Below the pieces are notes generated by a model. That model did not search any database, was not told the DNA's origin, and saw only the letters and a program-made list of their open reading frames with translations. A stretch of 64,000 nt of DNA from Candidatus Babeliales bacterium (lineage in GTDB: Bacteria > Babelota > Babeliae > Babelales > JANWKD01): positions 1,088,001 through 1,152,000 of the forward strand of contig CAVRJM010000001.1 of assembly GCA_963722075.1 (NCBI GenBank), given 5' to 3'. Numbering within the stretch: the stretch's first letter is position 1; every line of letters starts with the position of its first letter. The translations under genes and the position numbers were made by a program. This document shows, in pieces, positions 3,863 to 59,713 of the stretch.

Positions 3863-4684
3863 TTATTCCTTTATTGTCTTAATAAGACGTTTTGCCTCTT
3901 GCCATTCTTTATCATTTTCTTCTGATTGTTTTATAAGTTGCGCTATATGAGAGAAAATAGTGCTTTGGTTAACAAGCTGAGGAATTCTTTTATTAGCGAT
4001 ATCGATAACCTGTGACAATAAACCATTTTCTTGCGCAGCGTACAATTCATTTTGTAACGTTTTAAGTTTTTGAGTACGTTTAGGATCACGTGCATGCGCC
4101 ATACTAAAAATATCCGTACCCAAATAATGGACCATACTATATGCAAGGTCATGCTTTTTAAGATCAATTGCTTTATTTATAATCTCATCTTCAGGTTTTT
4201 CCATCCATTTATTTACAAGCTCTTCAAGAGAAAATTCACTTGCAAGACGCGTAGCCGGAGACATAGATTCCATTATTGATTCCATTATTGTTGCGGGTTT
4301 GCGTTCACCAATAACTGATGCTCGAGCAGGTTTTTCTTCTTTTTTTTCTTTTTCCAATTGTCTCAACTCGCGTTGTATTCTACGAGCTTTAGCAAACTCA
4401 TACGAATCCTTAACAAAATCGCGCTTGTCTCTAAGCTTATTTATTTGATCATTACTTATATCAGCAAATTTTCCTTCAAGTTTCCCCACTAAAATTTTTT
4501 CAATTAATCCATTTAAGTCAAGCATAATATTCAGAATAACTGATTCATTACTAATGTTCATGGCTACTGGCTCGAATTGCGTTACATAATAATATATTCG
4601 CTCCCGTATGGGCGATTCCATTGCTGCAACATTTAACGTAATAAATAGTAATAAACCAGGGATATAACGTGAGTAGTTTTTCAT
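3863..4684 (-). CDS. Secreted hypothetical protein (paralog of 4801..5289)
   Basis: Signal peptide followed by MES; C-terminal half aligns by eye with the neighbour; AGGAGG RBS. Confidence 0.75.
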   Translation of the reverse strand: MKNYSRYIPGLLLFITLNVAAMESPIRERIYYYVTQFEPVAMNISNESVILNIMLDLNGLIEKILVGKLEGKFADISNDQINKLRDKRDFVKDSYEFAKARRIQRELRQLEKEKKEEKPARASVIGERKPATIMESIMESMSPATRLASEFSLEELVNKWMEKPEDEIINKAIDLKKHDLAYSMVHYLGTDIFSMAHARDPKRTQKLKTLQNELYAAQENGLLSQVIDIANKRIPQLVNQSTIFSHIAQLIKQSEENDKEWQEAKRLIKTIKE

Positions 4685-4800
4685 AAAACCTCCTTTTTAA
4701 CCTAATTATTTTTAACTCTCTTATGATAATTATACCTTTATTAATACCCTAAATGCAATAGATTGTAGCTGAAAGGGCCTCCCATCGGGCCGCTACACCA

Positions 4801-5289
4801 TTAACTCAATATTATTTTCGATTCTTCTATAAGTTCCGCTAATCGAGAAAAAATAGTAGTTTCATTGATAGATGGTACTGAGCACTTAATAATAGTAACG
4901 ATGTCAGATAGAGACTTATTTATCGACGCCATGCGTAAATCATTTTGCAATGATTTAAGTGTTTTGGTAGTACCAAACTCTGCAACATTAAACGGCTGTT
5001 CAGCGCTCAAATAAGATCGTAACATTTCTCTAATAAGCACTTTTTTAATTTTAATGGCTTCTTTCAACGCTTGATCTGAAGGATCATGCATCGACCTGTA
5101 TATAAGATTTTCTAGAGAATATTCTTCAGCCAGCTGTTCGGATGTTTCAGTTTTTTGGACCTTTGAATGATTCCTTTGATCCTGTACAATGCTTATTTTT
5201 TTTCTTTTATCTAAACCAGAGGATTTCATTGCTAATGCATACATATTGATGAATAGTAACAATAATGTTAAGAAGGCGGCAGTATTCAT
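4801..5289 (-). CDS. Secreted hypothetical protein (paralog of 3863..4684)
   Basis: Signal peptide followed by MKS; shared LAxE(Y/F)SLE, LKxLQNxL and TIFS motifs. Confidence 0.75.
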   Translation of the reverse strand: MNTAAFLTLLLLFINMYALAMKSSGLDKRKKISIVQDQRNHSKVQKTETSEQLAEEYSLENLIYRSMHDPSDQALKEAIKIKKVLIREMLRSYLSAEQPFNVAEFGTTKTLKSLQNDLRMASINKSLSDIVTIIKCSVPSINETTIFSRLAELIEESKIILS

Positions 5290-5452
5290 AAGAACCTCAT
5301 ACTAACTACTTTGGATCCTTTTATTATTTTTAATATTATTGCAAAATTGATTCAATAATTAAAACAAAACTATCTTTTTATATATTGATTCTTCTAAAAT
5401 AAATTAACGATTATAATTACCATAATAAAGCAAACAAAAAGAGGAATTATAA

Positions 5453-5851
5453 ATGAGTATAGAGTTACATCATCTATTTAAAGCAATTAAAGAACATCGC
5501 ATAGAACAAGTGAAAGTAGCAATAAAAAATGATCAAGCTCTTGTTAACACCAAAGATGATAAACAACATACAGCCCTCACCATTGCAGCAGAATGTGGAA
5601 CTACAGGAATTATTGATGATTTACTTAAGCATGGTGCGCATATCAATTATCAACTTCCGCCACATAAATACACACCGCTCATTATTGCGGTTCGCGCAGG
5701 CCAACTTGATATAGTCAAATATCTGCTTAGTCATGGTGCCAATATTCAGCTCACGGATGATCAAGGAAAAACCGCATTATGGCATGCACAACAACAAAAA
5801 CAACAAGATATTATTACTTTTCTTCAACAAAAAGCAGAAGGCAAATCTTAA
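5453..5851 (+). CDS. Ankyrin repeat protein
   Basis: TALTIAA, TPLIIAV, GKTALW and GANI repeats. Confidence 0.9.
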   Translation: MSIELHHLFKAIKEHRIEQVKVAIKNDQALVNTKDDKQHTALTIAAECGTTGIIDDLLKHGAHINYQLPPHKYTPLIIAVRAGQLDIVKYLLSHGANIQLTDDQGKTALWHAQQQKQQDIITFLQQKAEGKS

Positions 5852-5870
5852 ATCTAAAAAGGTTTTTAGT

Positions 5871-6833: not shown

Positions 6834-6850
6834 CATATAAAGAGATAAAA

Positions 6851-12185: not shown

Positions 12186-12890
12186 TTAAGACTGTGGCAA
12201 CTCTAATGGATACGTATGTTGATCTTTTTTGACAATCAGTGAGCAGCCTAATGCCTCCATAATTTTTAAGAAGCTTTGTAAAGTAATATTAGTTTTAGTT
12301 CCAGAACGAATGCCCTGTACAATTGCCGATGACAAACCTGCTTCACGAGCTAACTGTCTTACTGAGATTTCATCCTCCTTCATAAGAGCTAGAAGTAATT
12401 CTGATAAAACAAGATCTCGATAACCTTCATCAAATTTTTTCTTACGTTCAGGACTCATTTTTGCAATATGACGATCATATGTCGTTTGAACATTTTTACT
12501 ATTTTTTTTGGTCATAATATATGCTCCTTTAACTCGTTCAACATAATCAAATCTATAATTCAATGCTCTACTTTTTTCTTTTTGGGGTAATTTATCTGTT
12601 TTCTTTTCAAAAGCGTTTGTTACAATTATATTTGATCCTTTAACAAAGAAGCATAAGAATCTATCGGGTGAAGGTTTAAAAGCATAGATCTGATCATCTT
12701 CGTTCCTAAATTTCTCAATATTATGAATATGGCCTGTATTTGCAATAAGTTTAAATAGATACAGTATTTTATCTTGTCTAATTTCATCTAAGTTTTCATA
12801 ATATTGATGGGATTGGCTTTTTCCTTTTGAATCATAATACCATTCTATGGTAAATTTAGGTCCAGCATATGCTATAAATTCTTTTTTCAT
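12186..12890 (-). CDS. Type II TA module: RelE/ParE (HigB/Gp49-like) toxin fused in frame to an HTH antitoxin (antitoxin part 12186..12515)
   Basis: Toxin half has IYAFKP..DRFLCFF..IIVTNAFEKKT. Antitoxin half has an Xre HTH (ISVRQLAREAGLS...NITLQSF) with its own AAAGGAG RBS before the ATG at 12515. Confidence 0.85.
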   Translation of the reverse strand: MKKEFIAYAGPKFTIEWYYDSKGKSQSHQYYENLDEIRQDKILYLFKLIANTGHIHNIEKFRNEDDQIYAFKPSPDRFLCFFVKGSNIIVTNAFEKKTDKLPQKEKSRALNYRFDYVERVKGAYIMTKKNSKNVQTTYDRHIAKMSPERKKKFDEGYRDLVLSELLLALMKEDEISVRQLAREAGLSSAIVQGIRSGTKTNITLQSFLKIMEALGCSLIVKKDQHTYPLELPQS

Positions 12891-16730: not shown

Positions 16731-16870
16731 ACACGCGCTCTTTTCTCATTAACTAAATAAATTTCTACATTCAAATAAACTTACAATTATTCGATTAATT
16801 GAATTAAGAGTTTTTTATAAAGTAAAATTAGTAATATATGAACGAAATGAAAAACAAAGGAGAAAAGAAC

Positions 16871-17551
16871 ATGAAGATACTTATGGTACTCACCTCCCAT
16901 GACCAATTGGGTAACACCGGCCGCAAGACCGGCTTCTGGCTAGAAGAATTCGCGGCCCCCTATTATGTATTCAGGGACGCTGGCGTTGAATTAACATTAG
17001 CCTCACCAAAAGGTGGGCAACCTCCCATTGATCCCAAAAGTGATCTACCAGAAAACCAAACTCCTGCCATGTTGCGGTTCAAGCAGGATAAAATAGCGCA
17101 AAAAGCACTTTCCCAAACGCTCAAGCTTGCCGATATGAAGGCAGAAGATTTTGATACCATATTTTATGTAGGCGGCCATGGCCCTATGTGGGATCTTGTG
17201 GATAATCCTGATTCCATAGCGCTGATTGAATCTTTTTACGATTCAGGCAAGCCGGTTGCTGCAGTCTGCCATTCACCAGCAGTGTTCCACCGAGTAATCT
17301 ACAAGGGCGCTCCACTGGTAAAGGGCAAGCACGTTACGGGCTTCACTAACGGTGAAGAGGAAGCAGTTCATCTTACTAAGGTGGTACCATTTCTTGTTGA
17401 AGATGAACTGAAAAGATTGGGTGCTATCTATGAAAAAGGGCCCGATTGGCAAAGCTTTGTAGTTGTTGATGGTCGACTTGTTACCGGACAAAATCCCGCA
17501 TCGTCTACCGCCGCAGCGCGTGCGCTTTTGAATCTATTTGCAAAGAAATAA
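16871..17551 (+). CDS. DJ-1/PfpI (type 1 glutamine amidotransferase-like) protein
   Basis: MKILMVLTSHD, TGFWLEE, GGHGPMWDL, AVCH and TGQNPAS motifs; AAGGAG RBS. Confidence 0.92.
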   Translation: MKILMVLTSHDQLGNTGRKTGFWLEEFAAPYYVFRDAGVELTLASPKGGQPPIDPKSDLPENQTPAMLRFKQDKIAQKALSQTLKLADMKAEDFDTIFYVGGHGPMWDLVDNPDSIALIESFYDSGKPVAAVCHSPAVFHRVIYKGAPLVKGKHVTGFTNGEEEAVHLTKVVPFLVEDELKRLGAIYEKGPDWQSFVVVDGRLVTGQNPASSTAAARALLNLFAKK

Positions 17552-19099: not shown

Positions 19100-19516
19100 A
19101 TGACCAAGCCACATAAAAAAGTTACTGCAGCAATCATAACAAGAGATAATAAAATTCTTATAGCACAACGTGCAAAAAAGGATGAGCTTTACGGTAAATG
19201 GGAGTTCCCTGGTGGAAAAATGGAGCCAGGAGAAACCGAACAAGAATGCTTAAAAAGAGAGCTATTGGAAGAGTTTGGTATTGAAGTTGAAATTGGCGAA
19301 TATGTATGTTCAAGTTTTTTTGTATATAACGGTACACCAATGGAAATGTTAGCTTATTATGTTACTTTGATTTCTAATGATTTCGTTCTTTACGAGCACC
19401 AACAAATTAAATGGGTTGAAAAAAGAGATTTGCTTTTATTTGATTTTCCGGAACCTGATAAGCCTATAATTCAGAAATTATTAGAAAATAAAAATTTTAT
19501 ACTAAAATTTACATAA
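19100..19516 (+). CDS. NUDIX hydrolase, MutT/NudG-like
   Basis: WEFPGGK..GET..CLKRELLEE Nudix box. Confidence 0.92.
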   Translation: MTKPHKKVTAAIITRDNKILIAQRAKKDELYGKWEFPGGKMEPGETEQECLKRELLEEFGIEVEIGEYVCSSFFVYNGTPMEMLAYYVTLISNDFVLYEHQQIKWVEKRDLLLFDFPEPDKPIIQKLLENKNFILKFT

Positions 19517-23453: not shown

Positions 23454-23762
23454 GAGCTTTACGGTAAATGGGAGTTCCCTGGTGGAAAAATGGAGCCAGG
23501 AGAAACCGAACAAGACTGTTTAAAAAGAGAGCTATTGGAAGAGTTTGGTATTGAAGTTGAAATTGGCGAATATGTATGTTCAAGTTTTTTTGTATATAAC
23601 GGTACACCAATGGAAATGTTGGCTTATTATGTCACTTCGATTTCTAATGATTTCATTCTTTACGAGCACCAACAAATTAAATGGGTTGAAAAAAGAGATT
23701 TGCTTTTATTTGATTTTCCAGAACCGGATATGCCTATAATTAAAAAGTTATTAGATAATTAA
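23454..23762 (+). pseudogene. 5'-truncated near-identical duplicate of NUDIX gene 19100..19516
   Basis: Nucleotide match begins abruptly at GAGCTTTACGGTAAATGGGAG; about the first 28 codons are missing. Confidence 0.85.
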
Positions 23763-23890
23763 AATTTTATACTAACGTTAAAGCGAATTTTACCATCAAA
23801 ACTCACTAATTTCAGTCCGTGACAAAATGTCACAACCTCAATTCCTTCAGCAATCAATCGCTATTTGAGTTTTCTCAAGAAAAGGGTATC

Positions 23891-23934
23891 AAGATTCTCA
23901 TGGTACTAACATCCTACGACCAACTAGGCAACAC
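23891..23934 (+). pseudogene. Relic of the 5' end of a DJ-1/PfpI gene
   Basis: KILMVLTSYDQLGNT matches KILMVLTSHDQLGNT at 16874; the start codon reads ATC. Confidence 0.7.
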
Positions 23935-23937
23935 TTT

Positions 23938-24501
23938 TTATAACCAAAAACTACCAAAATATTTTGCAAATAATTCTATACCTTCTTGCAGCTTTTGGCG
24001 ATGCTCTTCAAACTTTTTACTAAAAATTTCAAGGCTAGGCCGCATAAGCTCTGAGTATCGATTCCATTCCAAAGATTCTAATGCAGCAGGTCCTTTGATA
24101 TTTTTAAATCTCTCTTTATCTTCTTGTTTTAATTTTTTTAACTCTTTTTTATGTACCCTGCCAAGCTTACTGCATTCTTTATAGTACTCTTTTTCTGATG
24201 GCCCATCCCAACCACGATTCTTAGCTATCCATTCAAAAGAATAGACCATTTTATCCAAACACTGTAGCCATTCATCAAACCTATCGAGATTATCTGGACC
24301 TTCTGGTTTTGTTGGATCCGGGGCAAAATCCATAGGATATCCTTGATATCCTTTATGTTTATCATATCTTTTACGATATTTTTTTAAAAAAGGATAAATG
24401 ACACGAGCTAAGGTAACATCACCGTTCCATAAATCATCGTACGTTACGGATACCTTTACTTTATCTTTAGTTTTATCTTTATAAGTGATTGATACTTTCA
24501 T
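23938..24501 (-). CDS. Phage-like hypothetical protein
   Basis: DLWNGDVTLARVIYPFL..GYP..W..LDKMVYSFE..QEGIELFAKYFGSFW resembles a phage hypothetical family (recalled, unverified). Confidence 0.55.
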   Translation of the reverse strand: MKVSITYKDKTKDKVKVSVTYDDLWNGDVTLARVIYPFLKKYRKRYDKHKGYQGYPMDFAPDPTKPEGPDNLDRFDEWLQCLDKMVYSFEWIAKNRGWDGPSEKEYYKECSKLGRVHKKELKKLKQEDKERFKNIKGPAALESLEWNRYSELMRPSLEIFSKKFEEHRQKLQEGIELFAKYFGSFWL

Positions 24502-25035: not shown

Positions 25036-25113
25036 TGGCGTCCCTAAGGGGATTCGAACCCCTGTTTTCGCCGTGAAAGGGCGGTGTCCTGGACCAGGCT
25101 AGACGATAGGGAC
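25036..25113 (-). tRNA. tRNA-Glu(TTC)
   Basis: GTCCCTATCGTCTAG...CTTTCAC...GGTTCGAATCC...GGGACGCCA; CCA is encoded. Confidence 0.95.
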
Positions 25114-25194: not shown

Positions 25195-25270
25195 TGGTGA
25201 GCCGCGATGGATTCGAACCATCGACCCACAGCTTAAAAGGCTGTTGCTCTACCAACTGAGCTAGCGGCTC
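25195..25270 (-). tRNA. tRNA-Lys(TTT)
   Basis: GAGCCGCTAGCTCAGTTGGTAGAGC...CTTTTAA...GGTTCGAATCC...CGGCTCACCA. Confidence 0.95.
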
Positions 25271-26829: not shown

Positions 26830-27174
26830 ATGTTAGCTTTATTTTTACCCTTCACCATAAGTTTATTATTTACTTTCAACCTATTTAGCATGCAAAAAGA
26901 AACTTTTCTGGAGAAAATTAATGAATACAATACCACTTTAATTAATATGGATTTAACCGTTATTCCAACACTAGAATCTAAGATACAAGCAGTAGCAAAT
27001 CTAACAAAGTTAGAAAATATTAATAAGCAATTAAAAGCTATGCTCCCACAACGCCGATTGAATAATGAAGAAACTCATCAAATGAGCGAATTAATAACCA
27101 CACTGGCTTCACATAACAAAACAATACGTGACAATATTGAAGCATGTACCTTCAACTCGTCACAAAACAATTGA
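26830..27174 (+). CDS. Hypothetical secreted protein
   Basis: AAGGAG RBS; signal peptide followed by MQK. Confidence 0.6.
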   Translation: MLALFLPFTISLLFTFNLFSMQKETFLEKINEYNTTLINMDLTVIPTLESKIQAVANLTKLENINKQLKAMLPQRRLNNEETHQMSELITTLASHNKTIRDNIEACTFNSSQNN

Positions 27175-33814: not shown

Positions 33815-33889
33815 GCGGGAATAGCTCAGTGGTAGAGCGTTGCCTTGCCAAGGCAAAGGTCGCGGGTTCGACCCCCGTTTCCCGCTCCA
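33815..33889 (+). tRNA. tRNA-Gly(GCC)
   Basis: GCGGGAATAGCTCAGTGGTAGAGC...TTGCCAA...GGTTCGACCC...TTCCCGCTCCA. Confidence 0.95.
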
Positions 33890-40840: not shown

Positions 40841-41323
40841 TTATTTACTTTGACTAAACCAATCACCTAAAGCGCCATATTGATACTGCCAGTAACCATA
40901 TCCCCCAAATGCGCCAATCAATGCTGCAACTGTCGTTGCACACAATCCTTTAAAGAGCGGCGAAAAGGTCGTATACCTATACCCAGCTGCGGCCAAATCG
41001 ATTTGCCAAGCAGTGGCAGTCGGATTAGTAGCAGTAGGATTTTGAACCAGTCCAAACTGAGAATTATTGATACTACAATTTCTAGCCATCAACATTCCAA
41101 GCACCCTTACACTGTAATTAACTTTTACAGAATAGTTTTCTTGCTGATTAACAAAGATACTTCCAGAATTTGGTACCTCCTTTGCAAAAATCTGTGGGTA
41201 AGCCCATTTACGAGCCTCACGATATTGTTTTGGCCCTTGCACATAATTTCGAATTGCTTCCATCGTATAATTTGATGAAATAAAACTCATAGATAATATT
41301 AATGCAAATACGATTCTTTTCAT
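40841..41323 (-). CDS. Secreted protein with C-terminal TM helix (tandem family member)
   Basis: Signal peptide followed by MEA; C-terminal TM. Confidence 0.65.
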   Translation of the reverse strand: MKRIVFALILSMSFISSNYTMEAIRNYVQGPKQYREARKWAYPQIFAKEVPNSGSIFVNQQENYSVKVNYSVRVLGMLMARNCSINNSQFGLVQNPTATNPTATAWQIDLAAAGYRYTTFSPLFKGLCATTVAALIGAFGGYGYWQYQYGALGDWFSQSK

Positions 41324-41335: not shown

Positions 41336-41821
41336 TTAATAACCACCAAAATGACCATAATCCCATTGAGTACCAGGAGTTGATTCAACAACGGTAGGCT
41401 TAGAATAAATTTTACGTGCCAAGTTTTCTGCCATTTTTAAGGCAGAAGAAACAATTGATGAATTTCTTGCTGCGTACAATCCCAATCCAGTAGCTACTGC
41501 TCCAAAAAGCACTTTAGCCCGTAAAGTCCAATGCGGCAAACCAATTTTGATATTACTATACGTGGGATCAACTTTCTCGGCGCCAAGGTAACAACCGATC
41601 ATTTTTTCTTTTAATACCACCGGTTTCGTTTTCAATACAAACCCTAAAAATGTGCTTTCTGGCACATCACCTTCATAGGTTTTAATTTTATCAATGAGAT
41701 TTTCTTTCGTTGTACACGTACCGTATTTTTTAACATATGCTTTTTGGTAATCTGTAAGCATGCCATAGGAAAAACTGATAACCGAACTTAAGACAAGAAA
41801 TAAAAAAATATACTTGTTCAT
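41336..41821 (-). CDS. Secreted protein with TM helix, ends HFGGY (tandem family member)
   Basis: N-terminus KYIFLFLVLSS and C-terminus HFGGY are shared with 41833..42489. Confidence 0.7.
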   Translation of the reverse strand: MNKYIFLFLVLSSVISFSYGMLTDYQKAYVKKYGTCTTKENLIDKIKTYEGDVPESTFLGFVLKTKPVVLKEKMIGCYLGAEKVDPTYSNIKIGLPHWTLRAKVLFGAVATGLGLYAARNSSIVSSALKMAENLARKIYSKPTVVESTPGTQWDYGHFGGY

Positions 41822-41832: not shown

Positions 41833-42489
41833 TTAATAACCACCAAAGTGAAAGTAATCCGAATTGCTAGACACTGACGATGTGACCGTTTTAGTTAAAG
41901 GCGCTGACGACTTTGAAAATAACCCCTTTAATCCGTTTACTAATTTTTCTCCAACTGAACTTTTATAAAGGCATCCTAGCCCTAATGCGCATGCAGCTCC
42001 CAGTAATAATTTTGTTTTTAAACACCAATGACTCAAGTAAATATGTTCAACCAAATAGTGCTTATCTTGTATCCATCGGTTATTTTCTTTAGTAAATCGT
42101 TCGCTAAATGATATTGGCTTTACAGACCATACTAAACCAAAAAAACGTGTGCAGGGAGTATCATATTTATAGGTACGAATCTGTGATCCATCTTTTTCAT
42201 TCTCTATTGAGCAAACACCATGCTGTCTTATAAATTCTTTTACTTCAGGAGAAAATGTTCTAAAACTATCTAGATTCATACGGAGGTTATTAATACTCAT
42301 TCCATTTAATAATCGAGATGAATCATTTTGCCAACCATTTGAATTATTGTTGCTTAAAAAACAATTATTGAAGGTAACGTCAACCGTTTGATCATCGAAT
42401 TGTATATTAGCTTTGCCATCCAATTGCATACTAAATGAATAAGAAATGGGAGAACTTAAGACAAGAAATAAAAAAATATACTTTTTCAT
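41833..42489 (-). CDS. Secreted protein with TM helix, ends HFGGY (tandem family member)
   Basis: Shares HG/YG.C, I.TY..D.P...F.G.V...KP and HW.L..K.L.GA motifs with 41336..41821. Confidence 0.7.
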   Translation of the reverse strand: MKKYIFLFLVLSSPISYSFSMQLDGKANIQFDDQTVDVTFNNCFLSNNNSNGWQNDSSRLLNGMSINNLRMNLDSFRTFSPEVKEFIRQHGVCSIENEKDGSQIRTYKYDTPCTRFFGLVWSVKPISFSERFTKENNRWIQDKHYLVEHIYLSHWCLKTKLLLGAACALGLGCLYKSSVGEKLVNGLKGLFSKSSAPLTKTVTSSVSSNSDYFHFGGY

Positions 42490-44270: not shown

Positions 44271-45233
44271 TTAATCTTTTTTCTCATATTGCTTTGTTCT
44301 TGATTCGGCTGCACGGCAAAATGGACATACTACTGTTGCTCGAGCTGATCCTGCTTTTAAGCTTTCCCAACAGGTTTTACAAATACATTTTTTACAACCA
44401 GTAGTAATAAATTGCTCGCCTTTTTCTATTTCTTCAAAGCAAATAGGGCATTCTAATTCTTCAGTTTCTTCCTCTTCTCCTTCAGTTTTCTGTTGGGGCT
44501 GCTGCGGTAACTGCTGAGGCTGCACTTGTGGTTGTGGGTACGGAATTTGTCGGGGTGGCACTTGTTGGTGTCGATGCTTAGCTTCTATATCAATCAACTG
44601 TTGTATTAAATCATAAATTTCTTCCATTCGATGCTCATAATATCTTATTTGAGCGTTGTTATCCCATTCATAGTGAATCGGAGTTAAATAAGTTACCATT
44701 TCATCTTCAGGAAGAGGCTCTCGCGCATCTATTTTGAATAAAAGTACTACTTTATCACGATTCAATTTATTAATAATATTTTTAATTCGAGGATCAAAGT
44801 CAATTGGAAAATGCCCATTCCTCTCTAATTGATCAACTAATTTATAAATCTCCTTTATCTCAGTAGGTAAGTTAATTTTTGCTTGTGATGCGGGAGACAA
44901 ATTAAATAAACCTTCTATGTCTCTTAAGGCATACTTAACATCCCAGGACTCCATTTCAATATTATGTTGCAAATAGGATCTTAATATATCCTTAACATTT
45001 TTTAACAAGGTGATTGCTTGTTGCTCAACCTGAGTCAGTTTTACAGGAATTTGTGGTGGCATATATGATAATGTGGGTGGCCCTAAAGGTGATACCGGTG
45101 GCTTGCCCGATAGTGCATCTTCCAGCTCAGTAAGCCGATTTTTTAAATCATTAAGATCATTTACTAACTGAGCGTTACTATTTAACATCATAACTAAAAA
45201 AAATAATATTACAGAAAAATGGCCTTTTTTCAT
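44271..45233 (-). CDS. Secreted RING-finger protein (putative E3 ligase effector)
   Basis: Signal peptide, PQ-rich linker and C-terminal CPIC...CKKCICKTC...CPFCR. Confidence 0.8.
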   Translation of the reverse strand: MKKGHFSVILFFLVMMLNSNAQLVNDLNDLKNRLTELEDALSGKPPVSPLGPPTLSYMPPQIPVKLTQVEQQAITLLKNVKDILRSYLQHNIEMESWDVKYALRDIEGLFNLSPASQAKINLPTEIKEIYKLVDQLERNGHFPIDFDPRIKNIINKLNRDKVVLLFKIDAREPLPEDEMVTYLTPIHYEWDNNAQIRYYEHRMEEIYDLIQQLIDIEAKHRHQQVPPRQIPYPQPQVQPQQLPQQPQQKTEGEEEETEELECPICFEEIEKGEQFITTGCKKCICKTCWESLKAGSARATVVCPFCRAAESRTKQYEKKD

Positions 45234-45249: not shown

Positions 45250-46396
45250 CAGGACTTACGCATTGGTCGAAAGTTCTGATTGGGACTTGAAATAAATAAA
45301 AAAGGGTGCTTCAATTTTGTGAATTAAACAACAAAAGCAAAAAAGAAGGACACCCGAAATGAGAATAACAAATACAAATGAAGAATCAAGCACACCAAAA
45401 TATGTAATGGGTTTATTAAAAACAACGGCACGAAAAGTTTGCACAAATATTTCTGAAACACTGGGAATAATGCATGATGTGCTCAATAGGGAAGTTGAAA
45501 AAGCAGCCCAGAATGCAGCAGAAATAACAAGCTCATTACAAAATGTTGCTCTAGAAAGTCTTAGCAATTGCGAAAGATATTTGATAATCGATGATACTCC
45601 CGTAAATAAGCAATATGCTAACGATATTGAAGGATTAGAAATTGTTTATGATAGTAGTGAGAAAAGATCAGCTTTGGGATTACGGTCTGTAATTGGCATG
45701 ATCACTGATACCAGAGTAAGAATACCGATTGATGCGGAGATTATGATAAGCAAAGTATTTGGAGAAACCAATTACAAGACAAAAAGTGAAATTGCTTACA
45801 TTATTATAGAGCGTGTTCTAGGATCAATTCGGTTTAATTGGTTAATTGCAGATGCCCATTATGCGACTGAATACCTTCTGCCAAAGCTTTTTAACAGGTC
45901 AATAAAATTTCTGATGAAAATTCCCAGAAATCGCGTTGTTACTATTAACAATAAAACAGGACAATTGCAAAAAATTTTACGTTTGAAAAAAAATAACAGA
46001 TTTGCTTGTGGATACGGCACTATTTTTGGTCTTTCCTGTTATTTCTATGTGTTAAAAATTGATAAGGAAAAAATTATGTATCTTATCAGTAGCCATCAGC
46101 TCGGCAAAGAGAAGCTAATTTCTACATATAAGATTCGTTGGCAAATTGAATGCTTCAATAGAACTGCCAAACAACTTCTTGGATTCAGCGAATGCCAAAT
46201 GCGTTCTTTTAACATGCAGCGTGCGCATTTACTTTTCGTGTTATGGGCTTATGCTTTAGCCGACATAAGGCGGGTAAAAGATAATTTCGACAATACTGAA
46301 CAAGCTGTCAGATCCTTTCGGGTCGCAAAACCCCCTACACCATCTAGTTTATTTTATGCTTTTGAAGAGAACTCTTATGCTCTTGCGTAAGTCCTG
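45250..46396 (+). mobile_element. IS701/IS4-superfamily insertion sequence
   Basis: Perfect 13-bp TIR CAGGACTTACGCA / TGCGTAAGTCCTG and a 7-bp direct repeat TTATTTT on both sides. Confidence 0.9.
45359..46390 (+). CDS. DDE transposase (IS701-like)
   Basis: LIIDDT, IADAHY and YKIRWQIECFNRTAKQLLG motifs. Confidence 0.88.
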   Translation: MRITNTNEESSTPKYVMGLLKTTARKVCTNISETLGIMHDVLNREVEKAAQNAAEITSSLQNVALESLSNCERYLIIDDTPVNKQYANDIEGLEIVYDSSEKRSALGLRSVIGMITDTRVRIPIDAEIMISKVFGETNYKTKSEIAYIIIERVLGSIRFNWLIADAHYATEYLLPKLFNRSIKFLMKIPRNRVVTINNKTGQLQKILRLKKNNRFACGYGTIFGLSCYFYVLKIDKEKIMYLISSHQLGKEKLISTYKIRWQIECFNRTAKQLLGFSECQMRSFNMQRAHLLFVLWAYALADIRRVKDNFDNTEQAVRSFRVAKPPTPSSLFYAFEENSYALA

Positions 46397-46490: not shown

Positions 46491-47516
46491 ATGGTATTTC
46501 ATATTATATATTGTTGTTTTTTTGCTTTTCTTCCCCTTCTATGCCAACCGCCCAAACTTCTCAATTGTGGTGCCACCTGTTATTTAAATGCAGCCACTCA
46601 AGCACTCTTGGCTATTAATCCGCTTAAAAATTTTTTACAATTAAATCCAAATGTTTATGCCCGAGGGTCGTTTGAAAATTCATTTCAACAATTAATAACT
46701 GCTGCGCCGCCGCTTGGCTTACCAAATCGTCAATTAATGAATACCTATGCAAAACAAGGCGCGAATATTATTGCCGGGTTATCACAAGGCAATCCCCTTG
46801 GTCAACAAGATGCATCGGAATTTTTAGGAGAGGTACTTGACCGGTTACGTACCAAGGGAAGAGAAGATAAAGAAAAAACGATTCGTCAATTTCTGAGTAA
46901 CATAATGGGTATACTTATTTATTCACAAATTGAATGCCCTCTTTCAGAATCACAATCTTATATTGCATCAAAACATACTAGCACTACGTATTATCTTTCA
47001 TTGCCAGTAAAAACAGCTTATGAGTTGCGTTCACTTGAAGAATGTTTATATGAATACTTCCAACCAGAACAGATTGAATTTAATGACCAAGAATGCAGGA
47101 AAACCAGCCAATTAGAGCACATTTCTTCTATTTTTATGGTGAGCTTAAGTAGGTATATTTTTGACATTGAAACACTAGAGGCTAAAAAATTAAGTCATTC
47201 TATACACGTTCCACTTACTTTCGATGTGCAACCATATTTAATACAAAAGCAAAATCATAATTTATATAAACTCATCGCATGCGTTGTGCATCATGGAACA
47301 GCAGCAGGAGGTCATTATGTTGCCTGTGTAAAATATGATAACCAGTGGTATCTTTGCGATGATACAACCATAACTAAGATCACTAAAAAAAAAGTAAAAC
47401 AATATGCCTCAATGGGATATATTTATATTTATGAACAAGAATCGTATACTACTATTAAAAAACAACTTGCTCATTTGAAACGAAGATTGAAAAGATTGTT
47501 AAGTCAGCTTCGCTGA
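46491..47516 (+). CDS. Secreted ubiquitin-specific protease (peptidase C19/USP)
   Basis: Cys box LLNCGATCYLNA, QQDASEFL, His box HHGTAAGGHYVA and WYLCDD. Confidence 0.9.
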   Translation: MVFHIIYCCFFAFLPLLCQPPKLLNCGATCYLNAATQALLAINPLKNFLQLNPNVYARGSFENSFQQLITAAPPLGLPNRQLMNTYAKQGANIIAGLSQGNPLGQQDASEFLGEVLDRLRTKGREDKEKTIRQFLSNIMGILIYSQIECPLSESQSYIASKHTSTTYYLSLPVKTAYELRSLEECLYEYFQPEQIEFNDQECRKTSQLEHISSIFMVSLSRYIFDIETLEAKKLSHSIHVPLTFDVQPYLIQKQNHNLYKLIACVVHHGTAAGGHYVACVKYDNQWYLCDDTTITKITKKKVKQYASMGYIYIYEQESYTTIKKQLAHLKRRLKRLLSQLR

Positions 47517-50594: not shown

Positions 50595-51530
50595 ATGACA
50601 ATATTCAAAAAAAATATTTTTTTTACCTTAACATTATCTCTGTTAGCTCAATCATGTATTGAAGCAAAATATTGGAATTGGGATCAAGATCCTGCTGATC
50701 CAGAAGCAGTAAAGCGTATATTTGAACAAACTATGGAGAGCGAATTACAACCACATAGTCAATCTGAAAAAGTGAAAAACACCATTCAAAACGCTAAATC
50801 AAATAAAGCAAACAATTTTAAGCAACTCGTTGCATGGAAATATTTATCAAAATATGAAGCAAAATCTGAAGCAGAGCAAGGTGGTCGCGACGAATCTATT
50901 AATTTAGCATTAAACATTATGTATGCTGAAATCGGAGATCAGTTAGATAATGCTATCAAAAAGCAAGACAAAGCTGCAACTGATGAAGATCTAAAGAGAA
51001 TTTATCATAAAATAAAAGATGTTATTAAACAAAAAATGCGCTCTGCTTACCGTCCTGCAACGGTGTTACAAGATTTCACTAAACCAGATTCTTACAATAC
51101 TACCAAAATAGAACAGTTGGTTAATCAAGAAGTTGCTAAACTCCCTAGTAATTTTAAAGAAAAACATTTTAGTGAAAATGATATCGTAGAGGTTTATCCA
51201 CAAAATAAAGTTGATCAAATGCGTTTACGCGTTCAACAAGGTAAAGTATGGCGAGAAGATGATTGTGCTGTTTGTGGCGAAGAATTTAGTACGCTTGGCA
51301 AACGAGTAAATTTAGAATGTGGGCACGCAATAATGTGCATGAAATGCGCTGTTGCCTCCATGCATATCTATAAAAAATATAACTGTCCAGTTTGCAGAGC
51401 CGCTATTGATCCAAATGATTTCTCACTCCGTTATCTCAAAAGTAATATGAAAGAATATGATTACAAAATATTTGAAAAGCTAGATCAGAATACCATGAAA
51501 CAAATCATGGATCTTTTTAAACGCGTTTAA
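50595..51530 (+). CDS. Secreted RING-HC (C3HC4) protein, putative E3 ligase effector
   Basis: Signal peptide; CAVC...CGHAIMCMKC...CPVCR. Confidence 0.85.
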   Translation: MTIFKKNIFFTLTLSLLAQSCIEAKYWNWDQDPADPEAVKRIFEQTMESELQPHSQSEKVKNTIQNAKSNKANNFKQLVAWKYLSKYEAKSEAEQGGRDESINLALNIMYAEIGDQLDNAIKKQDKAATDEDLKRIYHKIKDVIKQKMRSAYRPATVLQDFTKPDSYNTTKIEQLVNQEVAKLPSNFKEKHFSENDIVEVYPQNKVDQMRLRVQQGKVWREDDCAVCGEEFSTLGKRVNLECGHAIMCMKCAVASMHIYKKYNCPVCRAAIDPNDFSLRYLKSNMKEYDYKIFEKLDQNTMKQIMDLFKRV

Positions 51531-51605: not shown

Positions 51606-53327
51606 ATGCATCTTTATTTAATTATTTTTTTAGCACTTTCTTTTTCAACTATTTCTCTGCCCATGGAGCATGATTCTGATGTTCTCATGCAGGATAAATT
51701 GCCACCACCTAACGCGAAATCCTGTGTGCAAGATTTAGACATCTTATATACAAAAAATAGTTCAGTAGCATGGAAAGGGTTATGGATTCTTAATAATCTT
51801 CTTAAGAAAAAATCATCGAATGATCTATTAACTTATTATAGAGATATGCTCAGAGCCACCCTAGGTGCAACAAATAAACCCTTATTCATTGATTATTTTA
51901 TCCCTCGTTTAAACGACCTCATTAGAACAGCTCCCCTATTATCCGATGAATCAGCACTCATGGATTCATTAGAAAGTATTATTTCATTACTCAATGAACA
52001 ATATCCAACTGAGGCATTAAAACATACCGCTCGATTAATAAAAAAACGAAAACTAAATGATCGCAAAGGAAAGCAACGAATCAGATATGATGCGCCCGAA
52101 CAATCACATTCTAATGGCACTGAAAAAAATACCATCGATATCGATGCTTTAGAAAAATCGCATAATGGATCAGTGCTCAATTTTACTAAAAAATTTGAAG
52201 ATTTTATTACATCAAAAATGGGAAATTCTCGTGACCAGCTTATTGGCAATTTAGCCGATTTTATTGGTACCCATTACCAATCGCACCCCTGGGTTTCTGC
52301 TTATTGCTATTTAAAAATGCATCTGACACCTTCCAACAGTCAAGATACACTTTTCTTTGCGCTCATGGAAAGCATTAATAGTACGTGTCTACCGCATTTA
52401 TGCCAAAATAAACAAATACAAGAATTTATTGATTCTTTCACCCAAGATGCACAACCATTAGAAATTGAAGAAGCAACACCTGCTTATTTATATGATCCAC
52501 TTAGCATTACAACGGATCTCGGGGATCAACCATGCTTATGTATTGCCCAAAAAAATCTACTAATTATCGCAGATAAGGATTTAACTATCTATGATGTTGC
52601 AAAAAAAGCGTCGGTTGCTGCTCATCCCCTGACTACTGGTATTATTGCTCTTTGTCATACGCCGGTTACTGCATATCTTCCACCAACGATCATGACTGAC
52701 TTATTACCGTATGGTGATAAACTATATCTATTATCATCAAATAATAACACTATTAAATCAGCTTTACTTTCTCCCGGTCATGATTATTTGCTTACTCTCG
52801 ATTCAGACAATACTCTTTACGCTCTTAATATTGAAGAAGAATATAATCGTAGACAATCCAATGCTAAAGAAGAAGGGCATCAGCGGATTGCAACCCAGAG
52901 TTCTTTAGATTCTGTATTATTTTTAAATAATCACAAATGTTTAGTGGGCAATTACCCTATGGCCTTGATTTGTAATTTAAAAAAAAGAAAAACTAAATCA
53001 ACAAATTATACTAATTTAAGTTATGCTACCTTATTAAATAAAATGCTCCTTACGGTGCAAGATCATACCACCCTGCATCTTTGGGACCGCAGCCAACAAA
53101 AGCGAATGATACTGGCTGATGAAAGAAAAATAAGAGGGTTAGTAAGTTTTTCGGATTTTGCAGTAGTTGCCGGTCTTGAAAATATGCTCATTTATCATAA
53201 GGATCACGGACTTATTGAAAATATAGCAGTTAAGGAATCCATTACCGCGCTGCAAAAAACCGAAAACAAATTATTTGTACATTGTTCCGATAATAAATTA
53301 TTAGTATATTCAGCACGAGAAAATTAA
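51606..53327 (+). CDS. Secreted protein with C-terminal WD40-like beta-propeller
   Basis: Signal peptide followed by MEH; LTIYD, LHLWD and ITAL repeats. Confidence 0.6.
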   Translation: MHLYLIIFLALSFSTISLPMEHDSDVLMQDKLPPPNAKSCVQDLDILYTKNSSVAWKGLWILNNLLKKKSSNDLLTYYRDMLRATLGATNKPLFIDYFIPRLNDLIRTAPLLSDESALMDSLESIISLLNEQYPTEALKHTARLIKKRKLNDRKGKQRIRYDAPEQSHSNGTEKNTIDIDALEKSHNGSVLNFTKKFEDFITSKMGNSRDQLIGNLADFIGTHYQSHPWVSAYCYLKMHLTPSNSQDTLFFALMESINSTCLPHLCQNKQIQEFIDSFTQDAQPLEIEEATPAYLYDPLSITTDLGDQPCLCIAQKNLLIIADKDLTIYDVAKKASVAAHPLTTGIIALCHTPVTAYLPPTIMTDLLPYGDKLYLLSSNNNTIKSALLSPGHDYLLTLDSDNTLYALNIEEEYNRRQSNAKEEGHQRIATQSSLDSVLFLNNHKCLVGNYPMALICNLKKRKTKSTNYTNLSYATLLNKMLLTVQDHTTLHLWDRSQQKRMILADERKIRGLVSFSDFAVVAGLENMLIYHKDHGLIENIAVKESITALQKTENKLFVHCSDNKLLVYSAREN

Positions 53328-53330: not shown

Positions 53331-54563
53331 ATGGTTTTTATATTTTTATTATTTTATTTATTATCTCTTACTCCACTGCAATCCATGGAGGCACCCGAAG
53401 ATGATTCCGTTACTTGTTTAATAGGCATATACAACTTCCACAAAGAGGCAGACATCGAAGCAGAAGGGATCGCTCTTGTAGAAAGCGCACTACAAGAATG
53501 GCTCATTACAAATCAGCCGGCAAAACGAGATTCCATTATTGATAATTTTATAAAATTATTAGAAGGGGCTTGCAAGTACAAAATACCTCCTTTAATAACT
53601 CTTACCTGCGTATATCTTACTAAATATTATAAAAACAATTTTGATACACCTGAAACTGCACCAGAAAAAACTGCAACACAAATACAAGAAACTGCACTGC
53701 GTTTATATAATGAATTGCTCAAACTAAATCCACAAGCAAAACACACAGAATTATTTAAATTGACGCAAATTAAGTCGAGTAATCAGAGTAATATTGTTAC
53801 ACAAGCTTTTATAGCAGAAGCTACTGCCACTCAACCTTATCTGCCACCACGAACTTCGCAACCAACTATAACAACCAAGCCTAAACCCGTTTTTAAAGAC
53901 GATAAACAGAATAGCATTGAACTACGCAGCAGTAATGAAACAACCTTTTACGCAATAGTAGATAAATCACCGATACCCCGTACTGATAACCCTACTAACT
54001 CTTTTATTGCTTCCGATCATTATCTTGTTACTTGCAATAAAAACGATATAAAAGTAGATAATCAAGCGCAAGGGCGTCGTTTTACTCTCCAAGGCCATAC
54101 AGCTCCAATTTTATCAGTACATTTTATTACCACCCATAAATTAATAAGCCGCTCACGCGATGGTTGTATCTTTTTGTGGAATTTAAATAAACAAACTTAC
54201 AAAGTATTATCAAATAATAAAGATGACAAACTACGAGCGCTTGCAATTGCGCAAGGTACTATGTTTAGTCTTCACGATAACCGTATAATCAAATTTTGGG
54301 ATAGAAGTAAAAAAAGCGCATTGCCAGTACATTCCGAGGTGTTGCCAATTATTTCGGATATTGCTCTTTTTAAAAATTGTTTAGTAGCTGCAGTAGCAAC
54401 CTATTTAAAAATATGGCCTAAACATGATAGTTTTTATGAAACTCGCGATATAAACTTAAAGAATTCTTGCCCAATTACTAAATTGAGCGCTTCTGATAAC
54501 CTTTTGATGGCTTTCAATGAACAGGGTAAAGTGCATATTGTAAGTGCCGTAAAAAAAGAGTAA
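53331..54563 (+). CDS. Secreted WD40-repeat protein
   Basis: Signal peptide followed by MEA; LQGHTAPILSV...SRSRDGCIFLWN and IIKFWD. Confidence 0.75.
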   Translation: MVFIFLLFYLLSLTPLQSMEAPEDDSVTCLIGIYNFHKEADIEAEGIALVESALQEWLITNQPAKRDSIIDNFIKLLEGACKYKIPPLITLTCVYLTKYYKNNFDTPETAPEKTATQIQETALRLYNELLKLNPQAKHTELFKLTQIKSSNQSNIVTQAFIAEATATQPYLPPRTSQPTITTKPKPVFKDDKQNSIELRSSNETTFYAIVDKSPIPRTDNPTNSFIASDHYLVTCNKNDIKVDNQAQGRRFTLQGHTAPILSVHFITTHKLISRSRDGCIFLWNLNKQTYKVLSNNKDDKLRALAIAQGTMFSLHDNRIIKFWDRSKKSALPVHSEVLPIISDIALFKNCLVAAVATYLKIWPKHDSFYETRDINLKNSCPITKLSASDNLLMAFNEQGKVHIVSAVKKE

Positions 54564-55780: not shown

Positions 55781-55784
55781 AACT

Positions 55785-56892: not shown

Positions 56893-56958
56893 TATTGCAG
56901 ATTCAAGGCAATTGGTCAGGAGTAAGATCTTCTTGCATGCAAAAGCAAAGATGTAGAA

Positions 56959-57714
56959 ATGATTAAAATTATTAATTTACGTAAAAAATTTGATCATCGC
57001 TGGATTACCGATGGGGTCGATTTAGAAATTCCTGAAGGTAAGATGACGGTTGTTATCGGAAGGTCTGGTGAAGGTAAATCGGTATTACTCAAACAAATTA
57101 TTGGCCTTATTACTCCCACTTCAGGTGAAATTATTGTTGATGGCATAGATATTGTACCAATTGCGCAAAAAAACCCTGATGAAATTTTTAAACAATTTGG
57201 TTATGTATTTCAATTTGCAGCACTACTTGATTCTTTAAATGTGTTTGAAAATGTTGGTATCAGCTTACTAGAACAAGGAATGCCGCCGCAACAAGTGTTA
57301 CCAATCGTTAAAGAACGCTTAAAAATGGTTAATTTAAAAGAAGAGATTCTCAATCGAATGCCATCAGAAATATCAGGTGGTATGAGAAAGCGGGTAGGGC
57401 TTGCGCGCACGCTTATTAGTAAGCCAAAAATTATTCTCTATGATGAACCAACCACCGGTCTGGATCCAATTACCTCACGCGTTATTCATGAACTTATGTT
57501 TGATATGCAAAAGCAGCTTAATATCACGTCTATTGTTATTTCGCATGACGTTGAAATTTTTAAATACGCCGATTATGTTGCCTTATTGCATGAAGGCAAG
57601 ATTCGCTTTCATGGGGACGCCAAAACCATTTGGGAATCAGATAACCCCTATATTTATCAATTCATTCGCGGCCTCACTGAAGGGCCTATTCAAACAGAAG
57701 CTAAACAGGCATAA
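56959..57714 (+). CDS. mlaF: MlaF family ABC ATP-binding protein
   Basis: GRSGEGKS, ISGGMRKRV, LYDEPTTGLDP and SHD motifs. Confidence 0.9.
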   Translation: MIKIINLRKKFDHRWITDGVDLEIPEGKMTVVIGRSGEGKSVLLKQIIGLITPTSGEIIVDGIDIVPIAQKNPDEIFKQFGYVFQFAALLDSLNVFENVGISLLEQGMPPQQVLPIVKERLKMVNLKEEILNRMPSEISGGMRKRVGLARTLISKPKIILYDEPTTGLDPITSRVIHELMFDMQKQLNITSIVISHDVEIFKYADYVALLHEGKIRFHGDAKTIWESDNPYIYQFIRGLTEGPIQTEAKQA

Positions 57715-57722
57715 GCCAACCA

Positions 57723-57823
57723 TGTCATCCCGATCCGCCGCCGCGCAGCTTTGGAGATACAAGGCCTATCCCATCGAAGTTATTTATTCCGCTTTTGTCA
57801 TCCCGAGCTCGCGTGGGGATCCA
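57723..57823. repeat. Palindromic repeat units
   Basis: TGTCATCCCGA... and TGTCATCCCGAGCTCGCGTGGGGATCCA. Confidence 0.8.
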
Positions 57824-58030
57824 TTAATTAATCCCTAGCAATCCTCCCTTAATCATTGTTTCTATTTGAATTTTTTTATAGAAAAAAGCAACTTTAATAG
57901 TAAAAACAGCTTACGGCAAGCCTTTCTTATTGACACAAATCATATTATTGTTATAATTGTAATTTGAATGGATATTTTTAGATAAATAATTACAAACAAG
58001 TAATTTTCGCGGACAATTCAAGGGATTATA

Positions 58031-59026
58031 ATGGGGACTTTTGCTAAACCATCTTTATTGTTTATTTTACTCCTTTCTGCTGCATTACCAAGCTTTGGCA
58101 TGAATAAAACTAAATCTTTTTTTAAAAAAGGATTAGGAATAGCGGCAACAGTAGGAACAGGAGCATTAGTAGTCACCAATTATGGCCTTTCATTTGCACT
58201 TCCTGGCTCATTAGTTTACTCAAAGATCAAAGGTTCTATTAAGGAAAAGAAAGAATTACCCGAACCACCTGAATCAGTAAAACAATTTATTCAGGCAAAT
58301 TTAGCAATACAAGGAGTCCATAATAGTGATCAAATACAAATAAAACATGAACCAGTAGCAACACAAGCTAAAGCTGCATTGCATAGCCCATCGGTTTTTA
58401 ACAATACTGTTTTTGTTCCTTGTTATCCTAAATATTCACGATCTGAACAAAAAATACTACCACGCTCCATATTACAAGATACATTAGAAAAAAATGATGA
58501 GGATTATTATGAGCACGATAGAAAAATGCAACTAGCTGAACAATCTTTCATATATCGCCATGAAGCAAATCATATTAAATATCACGATACAAAAAAAATT
58601 TTAGGTGTATCTATATTTATTCCATGCGCTATCAAGGGAATATCATTTTTATTAAAAAAATCGTATAGACCAAAACAATTGCTTAAAAATCTCTTAGCAA
58701 TACCTGGCGGCATACTCACAACATATACTAATATTATTTTTTCCACCGCTTATAGAAGAATGACTGAACAACGAGCTGATGATGATATTGTTGCAGATGA
58801 TCCTAAAATACTTAAGGCTGGAATAAAATTCTTTAAACAAATGCAACGATATGAGCCCCATGAAAGAATCCCCGCTTCTTTTTCTGATCATTTATTGAAA
58901 ATAGCTACTAACATACGTACCCATCCTCGTCTTCAGCACCGCATTAATCGTTTAAAAGAGCGTAAGAAGGCACTTGAGGGATTAAAGCATAAAAAAATAA
59001 AAAAAACAAAATGGAATAATTATTAG
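58031..59026 (+). CDS. Secreted M48-like zinc metallopeptidase
   Basis: HEANH zinc motif, downstream EQRADD and THP; signal peptide followed by MNK. Confidence 0.7.
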   Translation: MGTFAKPSLLFILLLSAALPSFGMNKTKSFFKKGLGIAATVGTGALVVTNYGLSFALPGSLVYSKIKGSIKEKKELPEPPESVKQFIQANLAIQGVHNSDQIQIKHEPVATQAKAALHSPSVFNNTVFVPCYPKYSRSEQKILPRSILQDTLEKNDEDYYEHDRKMQLAEQSFIYRHEANHIKYHDTKKILGVSIFIPCAIKGISFLLKKSYRPKQLLKNLLAIPGGILTTYTNIIFSTAYRRMTEQRADDDIVADDPKILKAGIKFFKQMQRYEPHERIPASFSDHLLKIATNIRTHPRLQHRINRLKERKKALEGLKHKKIKKTKWNNY

Positions 59027-59048
59027 GAGCTTTTTAGAGGACAATCAT

Positions 59049-59291
59049 ATGTATAAATATTTATATCTCCTGCTTTTTCTATCGTTACCCTGCATCGCCA
59101 TGGATCGCAGCGTATCGCATAAACGGAATTCAAATGCTTCATTTTATTTAGGAAAAAATGTAACAACATTCTCTCTAGAACGACTTCAGCTCCAAAGAGA
59201 GATTGAAGATGCAAAACTAAAGCAAGAAGAAGTGCGCGAGCAAATGAAACAACCCGAAAGTTATTTTAGTAGGTTTTTTGGCAATAATTAA
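59049..59291 (+). CDS. Small secreted hypothetical protein
   Basis: GAGG RBS; signal peptide followed by MDR; coiled coil. Confidence 0.6.
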   Translation: MYKYLYLLLFLSLPCIAMDRSVSHKRNSNASFYLGKNVTTFSLERLQLQREIEDAKLKQEEVREQMKQPESYFSRFFGNN

Positions 59292-59713
59292 AATAGTTTA
59301 TTTTTTATACGCCTAAATAAGCCATGCACTTCATAATCATTAATGGCGGTATTAAAAAATGCTTTAGCTCCTAAAATATTGATTCCATATCCTAAACTTC
59401 CCAAACTTACCGCTCCCCAAAAAGCGCCAACAGCAAGAGTTAATTTATCTAACTTTTTTTCGTTAAAAATTGATAAAGCTCCTAACCCAGTGATTACCCC
59501 AAATCCCGTCATCAAATAGCCGGTTGGTCGCTGGCTAGCAATCTTGGTGCCTGCCAGATTTTTTCGCTGTTCCTGCCGCTGCTGTAAGTTTTTTTGTTTG
59601 GCTTTTACTATTTGTTGCTGCAAATGACGTATTTCTTCTTGTTTCTCTGCCTCCGTCTGCATAGAATGAGCAAAAGCCGGCATTAAGAGAAGTAAAAGAA
59701 TATAATGAATCAT
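59288..59713 (-). CDS. Secreted hypothetical protein with 2 TM helices
   Basis: AAGGA RBS; signal peptide followed by MQT; coiled coil and TM pair. Confidence 0.65.
   Translation of the reverse strand: MIHYILLLLLMPAFAHSMQTEAEKQEEIRHLQQQIVKAKQKNLQQRQEQRKNLAGTKIASQRPTGYLMTGFGVITGLGALSIFNEKKLDKLTLAVGAFWGAVSLGSLGYGINILGAKAFFNTAINDYEVHGLFRRIKNKLF

Follow-up and report, generated by a model that had tools for sequence, protein, structure and literature searches.

A methionine directly behind the predicted signal peptide in effector-like and orphan proteins of a Candidatus Babeliales bacterium

The DNA analysed here (the window) comprises 64,000 nucleotides, positions 1,088,001 to 1,152,000 of contig CAVRJM010000001.1 (GenBank assembly GCA_963722075.1), and is one part of the 1.47 Mb genome (35% guanine plus cytosine, GC) of a Candidatus Babeliales bacterium, G000. 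Its ClpB agrees with a place in the Babeliales (TM6/Dependentiae): it is 68% identical to the ClpB of one Candidatus Babeliales record and at most 56% identical to those of the other 79 loci listed, and 46 of 61 genomes of this order gave full-strength ClpB matches. The organism is likely a parasite of protists; the hosts of its cultured relatives are amoebae and flagellates (PMC4378268, PMC6561590). Eleven genes of the window encode proteins in which a predicted signal peptide is followed directly by methionine. These proteins are referred to as Met-type, with positions counted from the predicted cut, so that the methionine is residue +1.

Two paralogous minus-strand orphans lie near one end of the window, one of 273 residues (3863..4684; VAA|MES, the bar marking the predicted cut; Met codon 4621-4619) and one of 162 residues (4801..5289; ALA|MKS; Met codon 5229-5227). 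A 114-residue orphan follows on the plus strand (26830..27174; LFS|MQK; Met codon 26890-26892). Three adjacent minus-strand genes encode orphans of 160 residues (40841..41323; NYT|MEA; Met codon 41263-41261), 161 residues (41336..41821; SYG|MLT; Met codon 41761-41759) and 218 residues (41833..42489; SFS|MQL; Met codon 42429-42427), the latter two being paralogues. The plus strand further carries a 573-residue protein without Pfam match (51606..53327; SLP|MEH; Met codon 51663-51665), a 410-residue protein with a weak WD40 match (53331..54563; LQS|MEA; Met codon 53385-53387), a 331-residue protein without Pfam match and with a paralogue elsewhere (58031..59026; SFG|MNK; Met codon 58100-58102) and an 80-residue orphan (59049..59291; CIA|MDR; Met codon 59100-59102), while a 141-residue orphan is encoded on the minus strand (59288..59713; AHS|MQT; Met codon 59662-59660). 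All 11 Met motifs of the original prediction, and the four Gln motifs that it listed as a second class, are present in the window sequence, and its count of nine Met proteins with E, D, N or Q at position +2 is right; the coordinates it gave as cut sites are really the first ATGs of the genes. Its description of the 11 as unrelated orphans does not hold for all of them, given the two paralogue pairs, the paralogue of 58031 and the weak WD40 match of 53331, and within the window the proteins form nine families. Ten of the 25 signal proteins detected in the window are Met-type, gene 26830 having escaped the genome-wide detector.

The excess of methionine at +1 is real, genome-wide and far above chance. 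Among 1406 genes of G000, called with our own gene caller, a heuristic detector picked out 567 proteins whose N-terminus looks like a signal peptide and whose gene has some Shine-Dalgarno score. Membrane anchors, for instance AtpE and RNase Y, are also in this set; a first, looser detector (615 proteins) admitted many false signals and was replaced. All cut sites are predictions from our own heuristics. A protein was called Met-type when Met follows A, S, G, P, T or C at the end of the signal peptide, one charged residue being allowed in the c-region and a polar stretch being required after the Met. This applies to 218 of the 567 proteins (155 BLAST clusters), compared with 6 of 91 signal proteins from 79 control loci of diverse bacteria. 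The excess does not depend on site prediction: in signal proteins, the residue after A, S or G at positions 15-27 is Met in 215/1740 cases (12.4%), whereas Met accounts for 141/7770 at positions 41-120 and 124/5631 (2.2%) after residues other than A, S or G. Met stands directly before the first charged residue past the hydrophobic core in 126/580 proteins of G000 and in 1/91 controls, and at each of the five preceding positions in 21-27 of the 580. When normalised for abundance, Met scores 23.8 under the Met rule, and the ten other residues tested score 0.9-3.3.

The Met-type proteins are not a random sample of the exported proteins. Pfam was used to scan 412 of the 567, and categories were assigned blind to Met status. 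Under the final rule, Met-type N-termini occur in 29/41 eukaryote-like, 1/33 envelope and 135/299 orphan proteins and in 0/39 enzymes; a first, stricter rule gave 21/41, 3/33, 126/299 and 0/39, respectively. The contrast between eukaryote-like proteins and envelope proteins plus enzymes (29/41 versus 1/72) has a Fisher p of 3e-16, a value inflated by paralogues. Most ankyrin, WD40, C2H2, DnaJ and AAA proteins carry the Met, while BamA, Skp, the S41 protease, both secretins and the wall hydrolases do not. The comparison of orphan with housekeeping exported proteins that the original prediction had called for, run here with our own heuristics, thus came out as it expected, the Met being specific to effector-like and orphan proteins. 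Five of the six CaaX-like C-termini in the genome, one of them below the length cut-off, sit on Met-type signal proteins (C1:814105, 824316, 980472, 1328018; C3:20045). The CaaX motif is a signal for prenylation, and these ends suggest modification by a host and point to the eukaryotic cytosol. A homologue search with a WD40 effector was uninformative, the named matches being mostly cyanobacterial WD40 proteins. Several families that are normally cytoplasmic, namely four GNATs, glutamine synthetase, NDK, thioredoxin reductases and FkbM methyltransferases, have signal-like or anchor N-termini in this genome, none with Met (L086:13437-18842, L092:1562-2131, L111:2741-4123, L089:2992-3501, L095:5058-7732, L102:13110-15320). 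In several other exported proteins, Trp or Gly-Trp is seemingly first after the signal (L099:15361, L099:16276, L099:18405, L095:18115, L096:3395), possibly a third small class.

The residue behind the Met is biased as well. Position +2 of the 218 proteins is E in 90, Q in 27, N in 27, D in 17, K in 15 and A in none, so that E, D, N and Q total 161. With one protein per BLAST cluster, these four residues account for 113/155 (32% expected from positions +3 to +8), while small residues, at 11/155 (32% expected), are avoided; without the polarity filter, the counts are 154/215 and 14/215. Met followed by a hydrophobic residue is avoided too (20/218). Met-Asp/Glu/Asn/Gln is the consensus of the eukaryotic N-terminal acetyltransferase NatB, which is tethered to the ribosome and acts co-translationally; a small residue at +2 triggers Met removal, and unacetylated Met-hydrophobic ends are UBR targets (PMC11735805). 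The likeness to NatB substrates noted in the original prediction extends over the genome and persists with one protein per family; given the predicted cut, most Met-type N-termini have the NatB substrate consensus.

The sites resemble those of Sec-exported proteins processed by signal peptidase I. Read from the first ATG, as called by the heuristic detector and the Shine-Dalgarno test described below, Met-type proteins have a short n-region, a hydrophobic core and a polar c-region, which fits a signal peptidase I substrate, and the small -1 residue (12.4% versus 2.2%, as above) is accompanied by a small or aliphatic -3 residue (L, S, I, A, T, V or C in 193/218), with Leu unusually frequent. 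A profile blind to +1 and +2 landed on the Met in 159-165 of the 218 held-out proteins, compared with 43% for decoy anchors; as it was trained on Met-anchored sites, it indicates a coherent cleavage-type motif and not the cut itself. When motifs were learned without supervision and with the scored positions hidden, small residue-Met-Glu was recovered in a shifted register, and two blind motif-learning runs were out of register, which makes their +1 counts (6 and 10 of 351) unusable.

The feature is strong in part of the Babeliales, not universal. In 120-140 kb samples of relatives, Met-type proteins make up 15/49 of the signal proteins in G001, 13/56 in G005, 7/44 in G018, 7/45 in G019, 4/34 in G048, 3/29 in G017, 5/49 in G040, 1/32 in G008 and 1/36 in G041, and a 20 kb sample of G046 has 0/6; the low counts are indistinguishable from the control (6/91). 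Ankyrin proteins from G048 and G049 have Met at +1; in G041 this residue is mostly Ala, Thr or Met, and in G040 mostly Ala or Ser. A DNA-pattern survey of 61 Babeliales genomes gave 2184 matches for Met versus 625 for a Val control, but in ten genomes examined for it, ATG alone already outnumbers GTG by a factor of about 1.8-3.9, so that only high values count. Such values were found in G000 (118 versus 18) and in family f2 (360 versus 68). A clear excess is present in 11/61 genomes, each with at least 60 matches (families f1, f2 and f3); families f7 and f12 have none, and the greater frequency of ATG relative to the GTG control leaves most other genomes ambiguous. The ankyrin-rich alphaproteobacterium G061 has 3/46 Met-type proteins, and under a stricter pattern none of 301 genomes of its class exceeded 8 matches, compared with 49 in G000, the pattern being insensitive in GC-rich genomes.

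A second class with Gln at +1, taken in the original prediction as a possible source of pyroglutamate, did not survive. Gln is an ordinary residue at +1, where it stands in just 21 of 509 blind calls, so that the signal peptidase substrates as a whole do not start mostly with Gln. Glutaminyl cyclase is not indicated either, with PF05096 above its cut-off in 0/61 genomes and no PF04389 match in G000. The two QPP proteins are paralogous USP-type deubiquitinases (Pfam UCH), 56% identical over residues 18-49, and represent one event. Three of the four Gln proteins share instead a predicted helix of 20 residues, here termed the heptad tag, in which Leu occupies positions 2, 6, 9, 13, 16 and 20 and Lys occupies 10 and 12. 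It is located at 45111-45170 in a minus-strand RING-finger protein (44271..45233; SNA|QLV), whose Gln is its first residue, near the C-terminus of one plus-strand deubiquitinase (61061..62455; LSA|QPP; tag at 62378-62437) and, in a weak form with a score of 14.3, below the cut-off, near that of the other (46491..47516, plus strand; LLC|QPP; tag at 47451-47510). The fourth protein, a 346-residue plus-strand orphan (59925..60965; IYT|QEP), has an uncertain cut site and neither Met nor heptad tag. The RING-finger protein, a second signal-bearing one at 50595-51530 and the two signal-bearing deubiquitinases nearby form a ubiquitin-manipulating cluster.

An unselected regular expression for the heptad tag matched 21 proteins, 20 of them signal-bearing. 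A refined set, seeded on signal proteins only, holds 29 exported proteins (24 clusters), of which 21 carry the tag immediately behind the signal peptide and 8 near the C-terminus. The carriers are mostly unrelated, including RING, USP, MavL-like, NADAR and NUDIX proteins and orphans (L092, L096, L099; in relatives L246-L265), and most lack the Met. The tag was not seen in about 1000 sampled genes of ten relatives; a later profile search of 40 others found matches in seven, and 20 of these 24 matches were inspected, 13 lying after a signal peptide, six within 11 residues of the stop codon and one internally. In PDB and Pfam only generic coiled coils matched, and nothing did in Atlas. As a guess, the tag could be a docking site, either for a secretion chaperone or for a coiled-coil partner in the host; it may also resemble ESCRT-III MIM1 or nuclear export helices.

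At the end of the window, a GspC-like gene (start at 63734..64000, plus strand) opens a putative type II secretion locus, which continues just outside it (L120:31-8562) with a secretin of 932 residues, a PilM-like gene, a 189-residue gene and a second secretin of 799 residues. A GspE-type ATPase and five pseudopilin-type genes are located elsewhere in G000. FHIPEP (PF00771), VirB4 (PF03135) and TolC (PF02321) have no match in G000, the type VI and Tat families lying outside this search; the predicted type II system, with its two secretins, is thus the only export machine found among the families searched. The signal that selects type II cargo is regarded as conformational and undefined. Type II is also the only secretion system reported for Babela, whose signal-bearing ankyrin proteins are expected in the amoeba cytoplasm (PMC4378268); two gspD copies are described in all TM6 genomes studied, with type II as part of the core (PMC4776705), and outer-membrane vesicles have been reported in a relative (PMC6561590).

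Other features of the window were noted by eye. A NUDIX-like gene (19100-19516) recurs as a near-identical partial copy (23490-23762), and a short piece of a DJ-1/PfpI-like gene (16838-17551) recurs at 23819-24184, in both cases 4-7 kb downstream. An open reading frame at 12186-12890 seems to join a RelE-like part to a helix-turn-helix part and is possibly a fused toxin-antitoxin pair, and transposase-like reading frames lie at 31475-32491 and 45359-46390. The window also contains three transfer RNA genes (25039-25113, 25198-25270 and 33815-33886).

Several explanations of the Met can be weighed against these data. The inner Met might be the true start and the apparent signal peptide merely AT-rich upstream DNA in frame, as a genome of 35% GC might allow; 8/220 cytoplasmic genes could indeed be extended to a false signal-like peptide. 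Of 116 proteins, however, 84% have a Shine-Dalgarno site ahead of the first ATG and 3% have one ahead of the inner ATG, compared with 11% for random inner Met codons; the start caller uses this signal, so that the 84% is partly built in, while the 3% is independent of the caller. The Shine-Dalgarno score is higher at the first ATG in 11/11 window genes. The artefact was rejected on these grounds and is hardly conceivable. The Met might also be a relic of gene birth, left without present function when signal-peptide cassettes were fused ahead of existing start codons; this idea agrees with the chromosomal clustering of Met-type genes (70 adjacent pairs versus 34 expected) and with the many young orphans among them. 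It is disfavoured because the second residue of true cytoplasmic starts in G000 differs strongly (E, D, N or Q in 100/468 and small in 157/468, versus 161/218 and 15/218 behind the Met), and it is further opposed by the 3% of inner ATGs with a Shine-Dalgarno site, by the lack of Met in the 39 enzymes with signal-like N-termini, and by the absence of notable codon bias at -1 or +2, on which a DNA cassette or Kozak-like context was also rejected; we consider the relic improbable. To the same degree improbable is a special preference of the signal peptidase, or a Met lying within its recognition site with the cut a few residues away, so that Met would not have to be the first residue of the mature protein. 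Two signal peptidase I genes are present in G000 (L244:1396-2259, L245:1444-2319), and a naive -3/-1 predictor picked the Met in only 82/371 proteins, often cutting 2-4 residues earlier. Leu or Ile, present at -3 in 97/218, is atypical by textbook signal peptidase rules. An enzyme preference would, however, affect envelope proteins too, the small residue-Met-Glu motif emerged by itself from unsupervised learning, and the two peptidases appear by eye to be close paralogues. Some relatives have two copies and most have one; G001, with one, still has 15/49 Met-type proteins, so that a dedicated second peptidase is not needed. Even taken together, the relic, the peptidase and the artefact are unlikely to account for the pattern.

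The favoured reading, which we hold to be about evenly balanced between right and wrong, is that the Met gives effectors delivered by type II secretion a new, host-like N-terminus that is safe from N-degron pathways. From the motif, its class restriction, the +2 bias, the missing inner ribosome-binding site and the gene inventory, all of them properties of the sequence, we infer the following course. Sec export strips the initiator Met and would expose whichever residue follows the cut, often one that leads to degradation in a eukaryotic cell; the predicted cut by signal peptidase I lies just ahead of Met-[E/Q/N/D], and effectors, for which the type II system is the likely route, would arrive in the host cytosol bearing a host-like start. 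Selection would thereby have rebuilt a eukaryote-style start on host-bound proteins, and the new end may evade the host Arg/N-degron pathway, be kept in the face of host methionine aminopeptidase and possibly be acetylated by NatB. Basic or bulky hydrophobic +1 residues are indeed rarer in effector-like proteins than in others in G000 (5/38 versus 26/59), G040 (3/23 versus 31/84) and G041 (9/64 versus 20/56), and the +1 residues of the relatives' ankyrin proteins given above would be host-like as well. Several points weigh against this reading. For G040 and G041 the data are weak, since any bacterium commonly has Ala and Ser at +1 (15/58 control calls); the comparison sets moreover include membrane anchors, and the ankyrin proteins of these two genomes are paralogues. 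As Ala or Ser ends would serve stability too, stability alone leaves the avoidance of small +2 residues unaccounted for. The Met rule was loosened and refined only after the class counts under the first rule were known. The Met is lacking in 12/41 eukaryote-like proteins, and just 18 of 30 signal-bearing ankyrin proteins genome-wide carry it; it is also lacking in the window in the signal-bearing ankyrin proteins 18127, 22319 and 36389 and in the RING and USP proteins. G019 ankyrin proteins have 0/7 Met and no bias, and 9/21 N-terminal heptad proteins start with D, E, N or Q, which are destabilising. A bacterial protein is, moreover, not made on host ribosomes, and acetylation would be the weakest step because NatB is described as co-translational (PMC11735805).

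In the main rival reading, the new N-terminus serves sorting and is recognised on the side of the bacterium or at the membrane of the vacuole, Met-[EQND] and the heptad being two address labels by which the type II machine, or a translocon downstream of it, would select cargo. We consider this possible, though somewhat doubtful; it and the host-directed reading are not mutually exclusive. Sorting would suit the near-clean split from envelope proteins, a +2 preference narrower than stability alone requires, the two secretins, and the occurrence of a second tag at either terminus of exported proteins mostly without Met, with a placement kept in relatives; the N-termini of mature exported Plasmodium proteins offer a precedent (PMC10653839). 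It accords less well with the variation of Met use among relatives, from 15/49 and 13/56 down to 1/32 and 1/36, while type II is reported as core (PMC4776705), and with the many orphans that have neither tag; both tags occur together in about 5 of the 20 heptad matches in relatives, which counts against two exclusive routes, and no receptor has been identified. More doubtful still is an address code in which the Met-[EQND] start and the movable three-heptad leucine tag would mark hundreds of effectors to be carried across the vacuole into the host, possibly via two different secretins.

Neither the +1 Met rule nor the heptad tag was found described in the literature searched, most subscription papers lying outside that search; the available text of PMC4378268, PMC6561590 and PMC4776705 gives no +1 rule or terminal tag, and the words methionine and motif are missing from the main text of PMC6561590. 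Met-[EQND] could serve as a two-residue marker that singles out host-directed proteins from the hundreds of orphans, the phylum having hardly any experimental biology. Any Sec-exported effector that loses its initiator Met must present a new N-terminus to the degradation and acetylation machinery of the host, which would be a general constraint. If the tags sort cargo, type II substrate choice, a long-standing question, becomes testable by single-residue changes, and the address code, if true, would be a readable linear signal for type II secretion and a bacterial counterpart of sorting by the Plasmodium export element (PEXEL).

The PEXEL consensus has RxL before the cut and ends in xE/Q/D. 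The +2 Glu, Gln or Asp seen here (134/218) resembles this end, while no Arg occurs at -3 among the 218 proteins. In Plasmodium, processing likewise exposes a new N-terminus on host-directed proteins (PMC10653839), but this is achieved by plasmepsin V in the endoplasmic reticulum, compared with bacterial Sec and predicted signal peptidase I cleavage here, where +1 is fixed as Met. The Bacteroidetes Q-rule is likewise a lineage-specific preference for one residue right after the signal peptidase I site (PMC5837995). It concerns Gln and proteins of all compartments, whereas Met on effector-like and orphan proteins is preferred here, where no glutaminyl cyclase was found; the main text of PMC5837995 mentions neither methionine nor TM6. 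Natural NatB substrates and proteins that escape the Arg/N-degron pathway share the Met-Asp/Glu/Asn/Gln start and likewise avoid first residues that are basic or bulky hydrophobic (PMC11735805), but the Met would be exposed here by bacterial proteolysis and not by host initiation, and acetylation would have to be post-translational. The closest likeness in lineage is to the secretomes of Babela massiliensis and Chromulinavorax destructans, of the same order, in which type II is the only export route reported, as here, and the share of signal-bearing proteins is about 40% (567/1406 here; 44% reported) (PMC4378268, PMC6561590, PMC4776705); those of Babela massiliensis are listed in Additional file 9 of PMC4378268.

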